Below, one piece after another: positions 1 through 55,511 of a DNA stretch of 64,000 bases. Both the position numbers and the translations under genes were made by a program. The stretch covers positions 14,012,001 to 14,076,000 of the forward strand of contig NC_091995.1 in NCBI RefSeq assembly GCF_044704955.1. Direction: 5' to 3'. Within the stretch, counting starts at the first letter, position 1; each line of letters begins with the position of its first letter. The notes under the pieces were generated by a model, which was not told the DNA's origin, did not search any database, and saw only the letters and a program-made list of their open reading frames with translations. This DNA comes from Pristiophorus japonicus. Its lineage: Eukaryota.

Positions 1-908
1 CAGTAATGAACAGTGTGTATATTAGTAATAATTTGATATTCACTCACTGTAATGAACAGTGTGTATATTAGTAACAGTTAGATATTCACTCACTGTAATA
101 AACAGTGTGCATATTAGTAATAGTTTGATATTCACTCACTAATGAACAGTGTGTATATTAGTAATAGTTTGATATTCACGCACTGTAATGAACAGTATGT
201 ATATTAGTAATAGTTTGATATTCACTCACTGTAATGAACAGTGTGTATATTAGTAACAGTTAGATATTCACTCACTGTAATAAATAGTGTGTATATTAGT
301 AATAGTTAGATATTCACTCACAGTAATGAACAGTGTGTATATTAGTAACAGTTAGATATTCACTCACTGTAATAAACAGTGTGTATATTAGTAATAGTTT
401 GATATTCACTCACTGTAATGAACAGTGTGTATATTAGTAATAGTTTGATATTCACGCACTGTAATGAACAGTATGTATATTAGTAATAGTTTGATATTCA
501 CTCACTGTAATAAACAGTGTGTATATTAGTAATAGTTTGATATTCACTCACTGTAATAAACATTGTGTATATTAGTAATAGTTTAATATTCACTCTGTAA
601 TAAACAGTGTGTATATTAGTAATAGTTTGATAGTCACTCACTATAATGAACGGTGTGTATATTAGTAATAGTTTGATATTCACTCACTATAATGAGCAGT
701 GTGTATATTAGTAATAGTTTGATATTCACTCACTGTAATGAACAGTGTGTATATTAGTAATAGTTTGATATTCACACACTGTAATAAACATTGTGTATAT
801 TAGTAATAGTTTGATAGTCACTCACTATAATGAACAGTGTGTATATTAGTAATAGTTTGATATTCATTCACTATGATGAACGGTGTGTATATTAGTAATA
901 GTTACTCA
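1..908. repeat. AT-rich minisatellite, 46-bp unit (CACTGTAATGAACAGTGTGTATATTAGTAATAGTTTGATATTCACT), in intron 1 of the SAPCD-family gene
   Basis: About 19-20 tandem near-identical units; the array runs off the window start and ends at the exon splice donor. Confidence 0.95.
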
Positions 909-909
909 C

Positions 910-1384
910 CCTGTGTCCAGATCCTGCAGTCTGGTCCCGGGCTGTCTGTCCCCTTGCCCCCCAGGTCGCTGTGGCCGGAGGCGGCCAGAGTGGAGCGGTC
1001 GGCTCGGCGCTGCTGCTGGAGCTGCTGCTGGTGCTGGAGCTGGTGCTGGGGTTGCCCGCCCCCCGGACTCGGGCTCTCGCTGTCCTGCTGCAGCGCTGCC
1101 CGGATGCCGCTCAGCAGGCGGGGGAAAGTGAGCTGGCCGCCGCTCGGCTCGGCCGCCCGGCGCAGGCACGGCATCAGCCCGGCGGGCAGCGCCGGCTCTC
1201 CCCCGCCGCCCTCACCCCCGCCAGCCCGCCAGCGGCTCTCGATCTCCCGCAGCTCCACCGCACCCCGGCCCTCCTGGTCCAGGATGTCGAAGAGGATCCG
1301 CAAGCTGAGCAGGAAGGTACGGGGCAGGCAGCGCTCCTGGGGCTGGGGTAGTTCGGGGGGCTCCGCCGCTGCTGCCCGGCTCAT
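910..1384 (-). CDS. SAPCD2: Suppressor APC domain-containing protein (SAPCD2-like), first coding exon
   Basis: LPRTFLLSLRILFDILDQEGRGAVELREIESRW...LPAGLMPCLRRAA...LTFPRLLSGIRAAL matches my recollection of the SAPCD2 N-terminus (LPRAFLQSLRTLFDILDD...LREIESRW). ATG at 1384, G|GTGAGT donor at 910/909 (phase 1), GC-rich island. SAPCD1 versus SAPCD2 orthology is unresolved. Confidence 0.8.
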
Positions 1385-20566: not shown

Positions 20567-20947
20567 TTATTTGCAGCTGGTGTATTTGGTGACCGCTTTC
20601 GTCCCCTCGGAGACGGCGTGCTTGGCCAGCTCCCCCGGGAGCAGCAGGCGGACAGCGGTCTGAATCTCCCGGGAGGAGATGGTGTGCCGCCGGCTGTAGT
20701 GGATCAGGCGGGAGGCCTCGCAGGCGATGCGCTCGAAGATGTCGTTGACGAACGAGTTCATGACACTCATGGCCTTGGAGGAGATGCTGGTGTCGGGGTG
20801 AACCTGCTTCAGCACCTTGTAGATGTAGATGCTGTAGCTCTGCTTCCTGGACTTCCTGCGCTTCTTCTCGCCTTTGACCCGTTGTTTGGAGACCACTTTC
20901 TTTGGCCCCTTTTTAGGCGCTATGCCCTTTGACACTGGCTCAGGCAT
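20567..20947 (-). CDS. H2B: Histone H2B variant 1 (126 aa)
   Basis: Intronless, intact histone fold ([10 protein letters not shown]...[23 protein letters not shown]), stem-loop and octamer promoter. Confidence 0.96.
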
Positions 20948-23254: not shown

Positions 23255-23641
<387 letters not shown>

Positions 23642-34930: not shown

Positions 34931-35341
34931 ATGCCGACTGTTGCTGCTGTTTCCACCAGTTCCACCGTCGCCAGTGCCAAAGGCGCCGTCTCCAAGAAGG
35001 GCTCGAAGAAAACCGCCATGAAAATGACCAGAAAAGGCGACAGGAAATACCGGAAGAGCAGGAAGGAGAGCTACAGCATCTATATCTACAAGGTGCTGAA
35101 GCAGGTCCACCCCGACACCGGCATTTCCTCCAAGGCAATGAGTGTCATCAACTCGTTCGTCAACGACATCTTCGAGCGCATCGCCTGCGAGGCTTCCCGC
35201 CTGATCCATTATACCAAACGGCAGACCATCTCCTCCCGGGAAATCCAGAGCGCCGTCCGCCTGCTGCTGCCGGGGGAGCTGGCCAAGCACGCCGTCTCCG
35301 AAGGGACCAAGGCGGTCACCAAATACACCAGCTCCAAATAG
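34931..35341 (+). CDS. H2B: Histone H2B variant 2 with extended N-terminal tail (136 aa)
   Basis: ATG 34931 ([27 protein letters not shown]...), intact histone fold and stem-loop. Confidence 0.95.
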
Positions 35342-37631: not shown

Positions 37632-38285
37632 ATGGCCGACACTCTCCGTGACAGGAGCACCCGGAAGAAGAGGACCAGAGCCCCGTCGTCGGCCAGGAGA
37701 TCCGTGTCCCAGCGGATCCTGGAGGCGGTGGCGACCACCAGGGAGCGCCGGGGCTTGTCGCTGGCGGCTCTCAAGAAGGTGCTGTCGGCCGGCGGCTACG
37801 ACGCGGAGAGAAACAACTGGCGGGTCAACAAGGCGGTCCGCAGCATGGTCACCAAAGGCTCGCTGCTGCAGGCCACCGGCACCGGCGCCTCGGGCTCCTT
37901 CAGGCTCGGCAAGATGCAGGGCGACCAGCCCCACCCGGCGGCGGGGGAGCAGCAGCAGAGGGAGGAGAAGCCCAATAGGGTTGCCGCCGCCCGGGAGAGG
38001 GGGAAGAGGAAGAGGCAACGCGCGGCTCGCCAGCCCGCCAGGAAGGCGGCGCCCAGGGGCAGAGGCTCACCCAGGAAGATCAAGAAAGGCGCCGCCGCCA
38101 GGAAGGGGGCGAGGAGGGTCGCCGCCCGCAAGCCCAGGGGGAAATCCGGGCTGGGGGCGAAAGGCAAGCGCCAGCGTACAAGGCCGAGAAAGTTGGCCAA
38201 GCGCCCGGAGTTGGAAGCCGACCAACCCCCCGGGGCTCAGGAGATCTCCCACTCGGAGAAAGAAAGCCAGGTTTGCTTGGAGTAA
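37632..38285 (+). CDS. H1: Linker histone H1-like A, Arg-rich with acidic C-terminus (217 aa)
   Basis: GCCATGG start; winged helix (SVSQRILEAV...ERRGLSLAALKKVLSAGGYD...VTKGSLLQATGTGASGSFRL); stem-loop; upstream CAGGTCC (37505) and TTAAATA. Confidence 0.92.
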   Translation: MADTLRDRSTRKKRTRAPSSARRSVSQRILEAVATTRERRGLSLAALKKVLSAGGYDAERNNWRVNKAVRSMVTKGSLLQATGTGASGSFRLGKMQGDQPHPAAGEQQQREEKPNRVAAARERGKRKRQRAARQPARKAAPRGRGSPRKIKKGAAARKGARRVAARKPRGKSGLGAKGKRQRTRPRKLAKRPELEADQPPGAQEISHSEKESQVCLE

Positions 38286-47372: not shown

Positions 47373-47870
47373 ATGCCCAAGGTACGCAGAGCCGGCGCAG
47401 GTGCAGATGCAGATGCCGGGGCTGTCGCTAGCCCTGCCGCGCCCAAGAAGGCGGGCGCCCAGCCCCGGCTCCGGCGCCAGCAGCGCAAGAAAGAGCTGCG
47501 GGTCTCGCAGATGATCCTGCAGGCGCTGTCGGCCCGCAAGCAGCGCGGCGGCCTGTCGCTGGCCTCGCTGCGCAAGGTGCTCCTTGCCAACGGCTACGAC
47601 GCTCAGAAGAACCAGGCCCGCGTCCAGCTGGCCATCAGGAGCCTGGTGAACGACGGCTCGCTGGTGCAGACCCAGGCCACGGGCTCCTTCAGGCTGAACG
47701 AGGGGCGAGAGCGGCAGGCGAAGGAGGGCGAGCTCCAGGCCGCCGGGGAAGCCACCCGGACCACCGGCCAGGACAAAAGCGCTGCCACCGCCGCCGCTGC
47801 CACCGCCGCCAAGAAGCCCAGAAAAAGACGCGCTGAGAAAAAAGGTAAATCCAGAAAACCTCGAAAATAA
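47373..47870 (+). CDS. H1: Linker histone H1-like B, shortened wing and short tail (165 aa)
   Basis: VSQMILQALSARKQRGGLSLASLRKVLLANGYDAQKNQARVQLAIRSLVNDGSLVQTQATGSFRL; TTTAAATA at 47284; stem-loop. Confidence 0.9.
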   Translation: MPKVRRAGAGADADAGAVASPAAPKKAGAQPRLRRQQRKKELRVSQMILQALSARKQRGGLSLASLRKVLLANGYDAQKNQARVQLAIRSLVNDGSLVQTQATGSFRLNEGRERQAKEGELQAAGEATRTTGQDKSAATAAAATAAKKPRKRRAEKKGKSRKPRK

Positions 47871-47930: not shown

Positions 47931-49461
47931 ACAATGTCTCCACAAATCGCTGAACTGCCCATTCTAAATGAAGATGAAGAAACATAGGAAATAGGTGCAG
48001 GAGCAGGCCATTCAGCCCTTCGAGCCTGCACCACCATTCAATATGATCATTGCTGATCAAGAAGGAAGATAAGGTTTAACTGTTTGGGACAGAGAGGGTG
48101 ATAAATATATAGACAAATATATAGACATCTTCAACGTATTTGAGCATGGCACCAGACAATCACATGCCGATCATATAGTCTAGAAGGAAATCTAGTATTG
48201 TTTTGATACAGTAAATAAGGGGAAACGCTCCATTGCCAGGAGGGTGGTAACCAGAGGACAGTAACATAATTGGCAAAAGAACCAGAGGGAAGATTAGATT
48301 TTTTTAACAGCCAGTTATGATCTGGTATGCATTGCCTGAAAGGGCGGTGAAAGCAGATTCAATAACTTTCAAAAGGGAATTGGATAAATACGTGAAAAGG
48401 AAAATTTTGCCGGGCTACGGGGAAAGCGTGGGAGTGGGACTAATTGGACAGCTCTTTCAAAGAGCCGGCACAGGCACGATGGGCCAAATCCTTATGTGCA
48501 GTATCATTTTCTGATTCTACCAAAGCTATCTTCATAGCTAGCTAGTTTATTCTCAATACACTTTCTGCTGTATGTGAGCATTCACTTTATGACCTTGCCA
48601 CACTCTCAGTGCCCCGGGACACCAACAGCCATCATAACTATATTCGTCCTTTTCCACTTTAGGTTCAGCAAATGCATTCACACTTTCTCCTGAGTTGTAA
48701 TGTCAGGAAGCACAACATTTTTGATCTCTTGCTACACCCTCTGATGGGGAAATGACAATCTACCTTTCAGTTCAGAGAGCAGTTTCTTCACGTCTCTCAA
48801 GTTGAATTGATTTCGATCGCGGGCTGGAGGTGGGGGGCGGGGGAGGAGGGTCACACTGCTTTGAAGATGACAAGGCAGGCACAGAAAGCATCTAGCTTCA
48901 TGTTGCCTGCCATGGGTAAATGCTGTGCCGACAGGGTTATGCCATCGTTTATGCATTAATGCATAATCAAGATTTCAGAGTCCCATCCCCTTTGTCAATA
49001 CGTGCTGTATAATTTGACCAGAAAGACATCAGCCCGTGCAAACCTACAGCGGGAACTGGATATCAGCCAGACTCGGGAAGACAATTTCACCTTCAGAAAA
49101 TGGATATAACAAAAGCAAAAACAACTACGAACGTTGGAAATAAAAACAAAATGTTGGAAATACTCAGGTCAGGCAACACCGGTGGTGAGAAAGGGTGTTA
49201 ACGTTTCAGGTCGATGACCTTGCATGAAATTCCCGTGTGCAAGCAGATCTCCCACTCCAGTTGCAATGCTTCGGTCCACTGGATTTTCTAAACATTGCAA
49301 AATAAAAAATAACGTTATGGTCATTATGGAACATGATACAATTGCGTTTCATGGTAAGGGAAATCAGCGTGAAGCATCTGACTGCGAGGCACTTGGAGAC
49401 GGGCGAATGCTTTAGGCGTTCAGACAAGGGGCGATCAAGCTCAATTCTGTTCGGGGTTGGT

Positions 49462-49477
49462 GGCTCTGAAAAGAGCC
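49462..49477 (-). terminator. Histone 3' stem-loop (H1-like C)
   Basis: ACAAC-GGCTCTTTTCAGAGCC-ACCAA on the minus strand. Confidence 0.95.
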
Positions 49478-49542
49478 GTTGTATTATATAGTGAGTTTTG
49501 TGCAAAGGTGGTTTCTGCACACCTCCCCCTGGCAGAGTCCTA

Positions 49543-50442
49543 TCACCGCTTCAGGCTGACTTTCCGTGGGCGCACTGCCGGCTTCCTGGGCCTGGCGGCC
49601 GGCGACCTCCCTCGGGACTTGTTACCCGCTGCCTTCCTGCCCCGGCCGGGCTTGCACTTGCGGTAAATTCGCGCCGCCGCCCGGCCCCGGGCCGCCTTGG
49701 ATCTGAAGCGGATGCGGACGGTCTTGGCCCCGGCGGGAGAGCAGGAAGAGCGGCGCCTGCGGCGGCGCCCGTCATCGAATTTGGGCTTGCGCGGGCGTCC
49801 CCGCAGCGGCGGTGCCTGCGCCTGTCGGCGTTTGGTGGCTTTGCGCCGGGCGTAAATGCGGCGGTGGCGGGGCGGCGGCCGCTTGGAGGCGGCGGCCACC
49901 CTCTTCCGCTTGGCCGACTCTTTCTTCTCCCTCCTGGGCGTTGTTACCGCCACTGCCGGAGGCGTAGAGCCTGCGTTCGCCCCGGTGTAGGCGGCGGCAG
50001 TAGGAGGACGGGGAGCCGGAACCCCCGAGCGGTTGAACCTGAAGGAGCCCGAGGCGCCGGTGCCGGCTGTCTGCACCAGCGAGCCCTTGGTCACCAGGTA
50101 CCGCACGGTGTGGTTGACGCGGTTGTTGTTGCGGCTCACGTCGTAGCCCTTGGCCGACAGCGCCTTCTTGAGGGCGGCCAGCGAGATGCCGCGGCGCTCC
50201 TTGGTGGCGGCCGCCACCTGCAGGATCTGCTCGGTCATGGTGGGGCCCGTCTTGCTGCGGCGCTTCAGGCCGTGTTGCGGCTGCCGTTCCGGCTGCTGCG
50301 CGTTTTGCTGCTGCTGCCGCTGCTTCTTCTTCTTCTTGGCCGCCGCCGCCGCCTTGTCCGGAGTCGACCGGGACTGGGGCGGAGTCCCGCCGCCGCCCAT
50401 GCCGCCCACATCTCCCGTCTCCTCCGAGTTATTGTCAGCCAT
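49543..50442 (-). CDS. H1: Linker histone H1-like C with protamine-like Arg-rich tail (299 aa)
   Basis: GCCATGG start; winged helix (GPTMTEQILQV...KERRGISLAALKKALSAKGYDV...LVTKGSLVQTAGTGASGSFRF); TATAAA at 50608-50613; stem-loop. Confidence 0.93.
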   Translation of the reverse strand: MADNNSEETGDVGGMGGGGTPPQSRSTPDKAAAAAKKKKKQRQQQQNAQQPERQPQHGLKRRSKTGPTMTEQILQVAAATKERRGISLAALKKALSAKGYDVSRNNNRVNHTVRYLVTKGSLVQTAGTGASGSFRFNRSGVPAPRPPTAAAYTGANAGSTPPAVAVTTPRREKKESAKRKRVAAASKRPPPRHRRIYARRKATKRRQAQAPPLRGRPRKPKFDDGRRRRRRSSCSPAGAKTVRIRFRSKAARGRAAARIYRKCKPGRGRKAAGNKSRGRSPAARPRKPAVRPRKVSLKR

Positions 50443-50674
50443 GCTCGGTTATGAGTCGGGGGGGGGGAGAGGGTTTGGGTGTGCGTGTGCCGAGGCAAAG
50501 GGAGGGGGCAGACGCTCTTTTCTCTCTCGCCACTCCCTGTTCCTCCCAAGCCGCGCACCAACACGTGGCTGAAACTAACAGGCGCCAGCCCGCCGCAGCG
50601 GCCGCTCTTTATAGAGGGGAAGCGGACGGGGTGGGGCGATCGCCGCCCACCGCACATCATCATCACCCGCACCC

Positions 50675-51545
50675 TGTCTGTCCCTCTCTGTGTGTGTCTC
50701 ACTCTCTGTGTCTCTCTGTCTCTGTGTATGTGTCTCTGTCCCTGTCTGTGTGTGTTGTCTCACTCTCTGTGTTTCACTCTCTGTGTGTCTCACTCTGTCT
50801 GTGTATGTGTATCTCACTCTCTGTGTCTCTCTCTGTGTGTCTCACTCTCTCCGTGTCTTACTCTCTGTGTCTCTCTGTCTCTGTCTGTGTGTGTCTCACT
50901 CTCTGTCTCTCTCTCTCTGCCTCACTCTCTGTGTTTCACTCTCTGTCTGTGTTTGTGTGTCTCACTCTCTGTCTCATTCTCTATCTCTCTGTCTCTGTCT
51001 GTGTATGTGTATCTCACTCTCTCTCTTTCTGTGTCTCTCTCTCATTATCTATCTCTCTTTCTCTATCTGTGTATGTGTCTCACTCTCTGTGTGTCTCTCT
51101 GTGTCTCTCACTCTGTCTCACTCTGTCTCTCACTCTCTTTCTGTCTCTCTCTGTCTTTGTCTCTCACTCTCTGTCTCTGACTCTCTGGCTGTCTCTCTCT
51201 CGCTCTCTCTGTCACTCTCTGTCTCTCTCTGTCTGTCTCTGTCGCATTCTCTCTGTCTGTCTCTGTTTCTCGCTGTCTGTGTATCTCACTCTGTTTGTCT
51301 CTGTCTCTCTGTTTCTCTCTCTATCTTTCTGTCTGTATATATGTGTCTCACTCTGTCTGTCTCTCTCTCTATGTGTCTCTCTGTGTATGTCTCTCTGTCT
51401 CTCTCTGTCTGTCCCTCTGTGCCTCTCTCTCTCTTCTCTCTTCCTCTCTCTCTGTCTCTCTCTCTGTCTCTCTCTCTCTGTGCCTCTATCTGTTTCTCTG
51501 TCTCTCTCTCTGTCTTTCTCACTCTATCTCCTGCTTCTCTTCTTT
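50675..51545. repeat. Low-complexity (TC/TG)n pyrimidine-rich tract
   Basis: About 870 bp of degenerate TCTG/TCTC/TGTG microsatellite. Confidence 0.95.
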
Positions 51546-52227
51546 TTGAGTTTCTCTCTTTTACTAACCCCCGTTATTTTAATGCATGGGCTACTTGGGT
51601 AGTGGTGAAATCTTTGTCTATGGACCACTTGCATTTTTCGGCAGTCATCTCGCACCTAAAGCTACAAATATCAGTCTGGATCGACATATGAAGAGATGTG
51701 GTAATCCTGCCATCGGTGAATACTGAAGGAAGCTCATTGACAAGCGTATAATATTACAGTGGCGGATCCAACAGATGGAATTCGCTGTTCTTAGTTTGAC
51801 AGCAGTGTAAGATATTGTAGCGAAATGCTGCAGAACACACTCGAGCACATATAATGTCAATTATTATGTATTGCAGCCAAACATGTTTCTAGTCATTCTG
51901 GCTCCATCTCATTACTAGAATTTGACATTAGACAATGACGTAGATTGCTCCACTTACCAAACTTAACTTCAGCTCAGTTCGGGTCGAATTAGTTTGACCT
52001 GAGCAGCAACTTTCGAAATAATAGACGCGCATAAATCCAAGATAAGTGATGCGCAGGAAGTAAGAAACGAAACAAAAAGCAGGACATACTGGAAACGCGG
52101 TCAAGCAGCATCTACGTGGGAGAGAGAGAGAGAGAAAAAACCCAAGAGTTAACGTTTCAGAGTCGGTGACCTTGTAGCAGAATTGGAAAAAGCTAAGAGA
52201 TGTCAGAGATTTTAAACAAGTGGAGAG

Positions 52228-53354: not shown

Positions 53355-53975
53355 ATGGCTGATACCGTGGCTGCCAAAGCCGAGCTCCCGGCGCCGCCCG
53401 CTCCCGCCCTGCCGCTCGCCGCCACCAGCGCCTCGGCGCTGGCCCCTGCCGCCAAGAAGAAGGCCGCCTACCGGCCGCAGAAAGGCGTCGCCGCCGCGGT
53501 GGCCGAGCAGATCCTGGAGGCGGTGGCTGCCACCAAGGAGCGCCAGGCGGCCCCCAAGCTGGGCTCCCTGAAGAAGACCATCTCGGCCTCCGGCTACGAG
53601 CCGCCGGACAAGGCCGGCGTCCGGCCCTCCCAGTCGGTCAGTACCACGGCCAACAAGGGTTCGCCGGCGGAGAGCGGCGCCGGCACTTCCTCGACCTCGC
53701 TGCACCCGGACCGAGAGGAGGAGGAGGACGGGGGGGAAGAGGAGGCCGAGGGAGGAGAAGACGGGGCCAAAGGAGGCGCCAAGAGCAAAGGAGCCGCCAA
53801 GAAGCCGGCCCGCAAGAGAGCGGCGGCCGCCAAACCCGCCGCCCACAAACGCGCCAAGAAGCCGGCGGCCAAGAACTCCCGCAAGGGCGCGGCGGCCAAG
53901 CCCAGAAAAGCCCCCAAGAGGTCCGCATCCTCCCGGACTGGGGGGCGGAAACGACGGGCCCCGAAGAGGAGGTAG
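53355..53975 (+). CDS. H1-derived protein D with eroded globular domain and acidic tract (206 aa)
   Basis: AVAEQILEAVAATKERQ...LGSLKKTISASGYE recalls H1 helices 1-2; Lys/Ala/Pro tail; GC box at about 53251, TATATAAA at 53301; stem-loop. Confidence 0.85.
   Translation: MADTVAAKAELPAPPAPALPLAATSASALAPAAKKKAAYRPQKGVAAAVAEQILEAVAATKERQAAPKLGSLKKTISASGYEPPDKAGVRPSQSVSTTANKGSPAESGAGTSSTSLHPDREEEEDGGEEEAEGGEDGAKGGAKSKGAAKKPARKRAAAAKPAAHKRAKKPAAKNSRKGAAAKPRKAPKRSASSRTGGRKRRAPKRR

Positions 53976-55112: not shown

Positions 55113-55511
<399 letters not shown>

Follow-up and report, generated by a model that had tools for sequence, protein, structure and literature searches.

A gene from an apparently undescribed arginine-rich linker histone subfamily of cartilaginous fishes, with a plausible role in the germ line

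The gene described here, from the shark Pristiophorus japonicus, encodes a 299-aa linker histone that belongs to an H1 subfamily of cartilaginous fishes apparently undescribed so far. A literature search that did not extend to the classic papers on dogfish or to the majority of subscription journals returned no description of an Arg-rich H1 clade in sharks. Judged by sequence, the subfamily is a variant among the germ-line-type linker histones already known as a class. A germ-line role for the 299-aa gene is plausible: it likely has a part in the repackaging of DNA as sperm cells develop, and its product is probably not a protamine precursor.

The window analysed is a 64,000-nt stretch of contig NC_091995.1 in a 5.9-Gb genome. 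The gene and its flanking elements, in window numbering, are:

50622..50627, minus strand: GTCCGC element, some 10 nt ahead of the TATA box
50608..50613, minus strand: TATA box (TATAAA), inside a promoter block conserved among three paralogues
49543..50442, minus strand: ORF of the H1 variant, 299 aa, pI 12, 27% Arg+Lys, 16.7% Arg
49462..49477, minus strand: histone 3' stem-loop GGCTCTTTTCAGAGCC, about 65 nt past the stop
49437..49450, minus strand: degenerate histone downstream element, CAGAATTGAGCTT versus CAGAAAAGAGCTG in canonical shark H1

The ORF runs intact and without introns from 50442 to 49543, and no upstream ATG lies between the TATA box and its start. As the sequence-only reading of this DNA had said, this is a histone stem-loop gene: the element at 49462-49477 matches Rfam RF00032 at 32.6 bits (E 1e-7), where the gathering score is 34. 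The purine-rich U7 downstream element is as weak in both paralogues as it is here, and neither AATAAA nor ATTAAA occurs in the 900 nt past the stop. An intronless frame, a 3' stem-loop, no poly(A) signal and a position among core histone genes together mark a replication-coupled histone gene. Late spermatids store protamine mRNAs in polyadenylated form, so that a stem-loop without a poly(A) signal fits spermatocytes better and would point to expression before late spermiogenesis.

The GTCCGC element is common to the three paralogues and to the canonical shark H1 examined (one promoter, with GTCCG ahead of its TATA box), and it resembles an element ahead of the H4 TATA box in the window; we take it to be an "H4 box". 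The promoter of the 299-aa gene has no CCAAT box, and an H1 box is absent from the canonical position. AAACACA sits at -151 in canonical shark H1 and here only at -332, within a simple repeat; with no such box in its promoter, the gene may be regulated outside ordinary S phase. A CT/GT simple repeat of about 900 bp (50680-51550) lies directly upstream of the promoter, and a similar but shorter one lies upstream of one paralogue. Sequencing run X1, whose kind and tissue are not on record, yields a contig over 49666-50056 with one letter different, as well as contigs carrying the letters of a paralogue; it leaves several unique stretches of the gene uncovered and is not evidence on expression either way.

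The encoded protein is laid out as follows, with site-I positions numbered from human H1.0:

50248..50442, minus strand: N-terminal tail, residues 1-65, Gly-rich, then Lys-/Gln-rich
50029..50247, minus strand: winged-helix globular domain, residues 66-138, of replication-coupled H1 type, with the GTGASGS hairpin intact
50113..50115, minus strand: Asn110, at the place of H5/H1.0 Lys69 in DNA-binding site I
50065..50067, minus strand: Ala126, in the wing where H5/H1.0 has Lys85 of DNA-binding site I
49936..50028, minus strand: Pro/Ala/Thr linker, residues 139-169, 31 aa with one charged residue
49546..49935, minus strand: Arg-rich disordered tail, residues 170-299, 130 aa, of which 37 are Arg, 18 Lys and 2 Cys
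49783..49809, minus strand: PLRGRPRKP, residues 212-220, AT-hook-like, private to the 299-aa copy
49735..49767, minus strand: RRRRRRSSCSP, residues 226-236, protamine-like, private to the 299-aa copy
49561..49584, minus strand: KPAVRPRK, residues 287-294, a degraded version of RPVGRPRK, the C-terminal motif of the family

The description read from the letters holds: an intact H1 globular domain (PF00538, E 3e-16), a nearly uncharged linker of about 30 aa, a tail of about 130 aa with roughly twice as much Arg as Lys, and within that tail RRRRRRSSCSP, two RIY motifs and PLRGRPRKP. The predicted structure is a winged helix over residues 69-136 (helices 69-79, 88-97 and 106-119; strands 122-124 and 134-136; pLDDT 72-95 over residues 61-140) with the remainder unstructured. 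Together, the Pfam match and the model give a winged-helix globular domain between disordered tails, as in linker histones. By eye, the N-terminal tail resembles those of one Heterodontus and several skate members of the subfamily.

Relatives with matching tails came from ten named elasmobranch species besides P. japonicus in one search and from further species in others, all annotated just as "H1-like" or uncharacterised. We built a tree of the globular domain from 74 of 90 collected rows over 72 columns. Of the rest, four rows had degenerate domains, three were broken copies, two were canonical copies that added nothing new and four were unnamed; an HP1BP3-like row, a bird row and a ray row that aligned poorly were also left aside. 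The tree contains a clade of 33 rows from sharks, rays and a chimaera (support 99/97), which comprises several divergent subfamilies. One of these, a shark-ray subfamily of 18 rows (support 100/99), holds the 299-aa gene; across its sharks and rays the globular domains are 65-91% identical and the frames are open. By eye the subfamily seemed to hold two ancient subtypes, but a tree of the N- and C-terminal tails did not resolve them.

The globular domain is of somatic, replication-coupled type and not of H5 type. Among PDB sequences it matches H1.1-H1.4 at E ~1e-21 and H1.0, H5 and H1x at 6e-7 to 9e-5, and it is 52-67% identical to canonical H1 versus 27-32% to shark H1.0. At 72 columns the deep branches of the tree are without resolution. 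In tests on 37 rows and 72 columns, grouping the clade with mammalian H1t was rejected (p-AU 0.02). Grouping it with shark canonical H1 was not rejected (p-AU 0.28, 37 rows), nor was grouping with teleost protamine-like (PL-like) rows from Mugil, Pagrus and Genypterus (p-AU 0.27, 37 rows), which stand apart from it in the best tree; the value for H1.0 (p-AU 0.32) bears on root position alone, the tree being unrooted. As part of our best explanation, and with about even confidence, we suggest that the clade descends from a replication-coupled H1, on a line distinct from both H1t and the H5-derived PLs.

What the subfamily shares in its tail is arginine. The ratio R/(R+K) is 0.38-0.68 in 18/18 subfamily tails (0.68 in the 299-aa protein) versus 0.00-0.07 in 10 canonical H1 controls, so the Arg enrichment is conserved in the subfamily. 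The earlier reading had itself named GC-biased substitution as a danger to its case, and a related explanation would make the gene an H1 duplicate in decay or under relaxed constraint, its tail having moved towards Arg through such substitution or through a frameshift. We consider this very unlikely. Fourfold-site GC is indeed 0.86 in the gene, with Arg codons mostly CGN, but it is 0.97 and 0.87 in the two H1.0 genes of this shark, and both of their tails are Lys-rich (5 Arg versus 35-36 Lys); the enrichment is therefore not a plain GC effect. The dN/dS of the globular domain among the three paralogues, 0.43-0.81 with few changes, means that recent constraint on the domain is not strong, and with the weak downstream element and the degenerate globular domains of some neighbours in the cluster it counts in favour of decay. 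Against decay stand the open frames and domain identity kept across sharks and rays, the promoter block and stem-loop conserved among the paralogues, and the motif GRP(R/K), found in 12/18 subfamily tails (the private one of the 299-aa copy included) versus 1.15 expected from shuffles.

The other two frames of the tail hold 3 and 0 Lys and are thus not Lys-rich, which speaks against a frameshift origin. A one-base shift before the six-Arg run does align slightly better to a paralogue, and point changes on the paralogue's GRARGRG explain the run equally well. In tunicates a frameshift has reportedly been proposed as the origin of an Arg tail. Separately, canonical H1 copies with a shifted tail frame (L022, L106) end Arg-rich, a natural Lys-to-Arg duality of frames.

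Several features that gave the tail its protamine look belong to this copy only. In an alignment of 17 proteins, in which two of the 16 other rows are paralogues from the same genome, Cys234, Cys263, Tyr197 of the first RIY, and R214 and G215 of RGRP each occur in 1/17 rows. The longest Arg run is six here and 2-4 in the other 17 subfamily tails. When the tail was shuffled 20,000 times, RGRP appeared in 6% of shuffles and a six-Arg run in 4%, so each is weak as a single motif. More widely kept are a Tyr-centred tail motif (13/17 rows) and the C-terminal G-R-P motif, whose Gly at column 290 is present in 16/16 other rows and is Val here. The AT-hook core claimed from the letters is there as RGRP, but it is private, expected by chance at the rate just given, and without a Pfam AT_hook match, as in 17/17 proteins searched. 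The likeness to Cys-linked protamines and the protamine-like Arg run did not survive the comparison, the tail being moreover 130 aa long where protamines are of 3-10 kDa (PMC11607694). To judge from these alignments, the protamine-precursor reading is one that rests on motifs private to the 299-aa copy.

According to that reading, the protein would be a PL-I-type sperm protein or protamine precursor, made in spermatids, displacing histones and cut at the uncharged linker to release its tail. We think this unlikely, and less likely than a germ-line variant of the H1t/HILS1 kind. Taken by itself, the tail is 42% basic with 28% Arg, and its densest 50 aa (187-236) hold 17 Arg among 22 basic residues; joined to a winged helix, this fits the PL description in PMC13148410, which defines PL-I by a winged helix plus an Arg/Lys-rich stretch of 30-50 aa. 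A passage of the same review states that sharks use PLs, citing Bloch 1976, and thereby leaves room for a precursor, as does the unrejected grouping with teleost PL-like H1. However, the protein as a whole is 27% basic, below canonical shark H1 (30-31%) and the teleost PL-like rows (31-35%), and its globular domain is of somatic type with the GASGS hairpin intact. PLs are described as deriving from the H5 line (PMC13148410, PMC13251019) and their precursors as being without the GASGS hairpin (PMC11607694), and cleavage is reported for some species (PMC13148410). The linker varies in length among relatives and is absent or very short in several. Because the gene has neither H5 descent nor hairpin loss nor a poly(A) signal, we do not file it as PL-I, though it may act in a related step. 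Nor are H1-related sperm proteins new to jawed vertebrates: one of them, Mullus surmuletus PL-I, is already described (PMC4584325).

Searches with the tail itself gave little. No protein of 30-163 aa matched it at E 10 (0/375 candidates), a search of low sensitivity in which dogfish protamines were not confirmed among the candidates. In its own genome only the tail itself was significant (1/41 candidates), a weak result that missed the paralogue tails too, and the ESM Atlas gave no usable match, a weak negative.

The other consistent departure of the family lies in the domain's DNA contacts. K69, R73 and K85 form DNA-binding site I (PMC5645174), and a K85V change moved H5 off-dyad in 7/8 docking simulations (PMC6129471). 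In the 299-aa protein these places hold Asn, Arg and Ala, which departs from the site I of linker histones. The K69 place is Asn in 18/18 subfamily members; the K85 place is non-basic in 33/33 clade members and Lys/Arg in 18/20 controls. The R73 and R94 equivalents and the GASGS hairpin are retained. The tails are also poor in S/TPx(K/R) motifs, with 0-2 each in the subfamily, 2-6 in canonical H1 and 1 in H1t.

These features suggest to us, at roughly even chances, a germ-line variant of the H1t/HILS1 kind with weakened nucleosome docking. Such a histone would act uncleaved in male germ cells, from spermatocytes to early spermatids, as mammalian H1t and HILS1 do. Its globular domain would still dock on nucleosomes through the hairpin and the R73 and R94 equivalents, but more weakly or off-dyad; DNA binding would move to the Arg-rich tail, poor as it is in S/TPxK motifs; and the variant would take the place of canonical H1 before or during the histone-to-protamine exchange. 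H1t is a testis-specific H1 of replication-dependent type (PMC6615755), H1t and HILS1 are poor in the S/TPxK motif and weak condensers (PMC6069787), and both precede protamine exchange (PMC6069787, PMC6615755). For an explanation held so evenly we count the clade and subfamily support, the loss of site-I lysines, the few S/TPxK motifs, the low copy number, the absent H1 box, and the separate presence of H1.0 genes and a putative H1.8 exon. We count against it the Arg-rich H1 known outside the germ line (H5 of erythrocytes, PMC4584325), the domain dN/dS, the review passage that gives sharks PLs (PMC13148410), a neighbouring H2B that is not closest to testis H2B, and the teleost PL-like grouping that was not rejected.

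The erythrocyte example opens a second alternative, that of a non-germ-line or female/embryonic variant: a convergent H5-like histone of erythrocytes or other differentiated cells or, in another form, a maternal or early-embryo H1 whose mRNA is handled through the stem-loop. Taken jointly, these have a real but minor share of the probability. An Arg-enriched H1 tail is known in erythrocyte H5 (PMC4584325), and both shark H1.0 genes are Lys-rich, which leaves an Arg-rich role for another H1. H5 and H1.0, however, are polyadenylated and replication-independent, whereas the Arg-rich clade is of the stem-loop type, and they keep the site-I lysines more often. Rapid tail turnover and several divergent subfamilies, both seen in the clade, are more typical of germ-line histones.

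The genome keeps the other H1 types apart. Two separate H1.0 genes lie 100 kb from each other on the same contig (74.39 and 74.49 Mb), one of them with Ser at the K85 place, and one exon in the genome is presumably oocyte H1.8, to judge by similarity. Canonical Lys-rich H1s form large arrays elsewhere (contigs C9 and C2056). The 299-aa gene is one of only three copies versus such an array: its two close paralogues lie within 0.3 Mb, with domain identities of 89% and 86%, and a UniRef entry carrying the label Pristiophorus japonicus is identical to one of them. The globular domain of the bulk shark H1s in the arrays appears farther from bony-vertebrate somatic H1 than does that of the Arg-rich clade.

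Histone genes were mapped over 664 kb and fall into two blocks, at 13.64-13.80 and 14.03-14.15 Mb. The H1-derived genes there are of at least four types and stand alongside H2A, H2B, H3 and H4, most of the genes having stem-loops. Exons of valyl-tRNA synthetase, SAPCD and a VWA7-like gene separate and adjoin the blocks, in a scan that covered 20 of 150 top-scored frames. The order over 13.85-14.26 Mb is valyl-tRNA synthetase, SAPCD (first exon at window 902-1384, minus strand), histone block, VWA7-like. Human VARS1, VWA7 and SAPCD1 adjoin one another in MHC class III. MHC class I exons occur at 40-57 Mb on the same contig, and a search for MHC class II beta gave no match and is uninformative. 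The main text of a paper on shark MHC (PMC10751288) does not mention histones. Inside the first block, at about 13.684-13.691 Mb, sits an element that resembles a retrovirus and has RNase H and RT-RNase H domains.

Several neighbours are unusual in their own right. Two related H1 variants, at window 47373-47870 (plus strand) and contig 14148968-14149630 (L058:2968-3630), have a wing without the GASGS hairpin. In the second, basic residues make up 33%, the N-terminal tail is rich in Arg and there are 5 Cys; its nearest ESM Atlas feature matches are the clusters "spermatid-specific linker histone H1" (0.93) and "testis-specific H1" (0.91). These two are better PL candidates than the 299-aa gene. 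A second Arg-rich H1 subfamily, with a short N-terminal tail and an acidic C-terminal end (window 37632-38285, plus strand, and L005), groups with ray and shark relatives inside the same clade. The stem-loop gene at window 53355-53975 (plus strand) and its three paralogues, at 13.783, 13.801 and 14.137 Mb, have H1-like tails, and their degenerate globular domain leads into an acidic stretch; they have no Pfam match. Divergent H2B genes (with Cys), H4 and H2A, each with a stem-loop, occupy window positions 20567-20947, 23255-23566, 34931-35341 and 55122-55511, and the H4 carries several substitutions. The idea of a testis-type H2B next door was dropped, its best PDB matches being ordinary H2B; its fold is about 89-90% identical to that of canonical shark H2B.

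Among known systems, mammalian H1t (H1.6) shares with the 299-aa gene a replication-coupled H1 origin, a place among core histone genes, few S/TPxK motifs and raised tail Arg (R/(R+K) 0.27-0.41 in two H1t rows). Unlike the shark protein, H1t has a basic residue at both 69 and 85, and its tail is shorter and holds less Arg; the two do not form one clade (p-AU as above). HILS1 (H1.9) and H1T2 (H1.7) are likewise divergent spermatid linker histones, but they are replication-independent and have far more divergent globular domains (neither is in the tree); HILS1 is without S/TPxK motifs and condenses DNA poorly (PMC6069787). Mullus surmuletus PL-I, compared by its description in PMC4584325, is a vertebrate H1-related protein with Arg/Lys-rich tails that differs in being polyadenylated and without the GASGS hairpin. 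The teleost "protamine-like" H1s share the somatic-type domain but are Lys-dominant, more basic, keep K85 and lie on other branches. The PL-I/PL-II precursors of molluscs and tunicates also join a winged helix to a disordered Arg/Lys-rich tail, but as described in PMC13148410 they are of the H5 line and some are cleaved, whereas the shark protein has a replication-coupled-type domain. Two further sources served as background only (PMC12216123, PMC5550673).

More distant likenesses are of motif. Dogfish protamines (scylliorhinines) and the spermatid proteins S1/S2 are short, Arg-rich and partly Cys-rich. The RRRRRRSSCSP stretch looks similar to them, but its Cys are not conserved in the family and no short protein matched the shark tail. 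Plant GH1-HMGA proteins carry an H1 domain followed by several canonical AT-hooks with a GRP core; the order of parts is the same here, but the shark family has one non-canonical VGRPRK motif and no Pfam AT_hook match.

A bolder reading would be that an old Arg-rich H1 cluster of replication-coupled origin, its stem-loop kept, supplies the spermatid transition or protamine-like proteins of cartilaginous fishes, with some members cleaved, either the 299-aa gene or its hairpin-less neighbours. We hold this improbable. If true, jawed vertebrates would have a second H1-to-protamine route, one separate from the H5 line, and its intermediate stages would be kept side by side. Mammals and a few teleosts have well-described germ-line H1 variants; for cartilaginous fishes none was found in the literature searched. 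The present clade, which occurs across sharks, rays and chimaeras, no longer has a DNA-contact lysine that is nearly universal, and it has several divergent subfamilies in one cluster. It gives named genes for asking whether transitions from H1 to protamine-like proteins began repeatedly, from different H1 lines; should its members prove somatic, they would still be a natural test of H1 function without K85.
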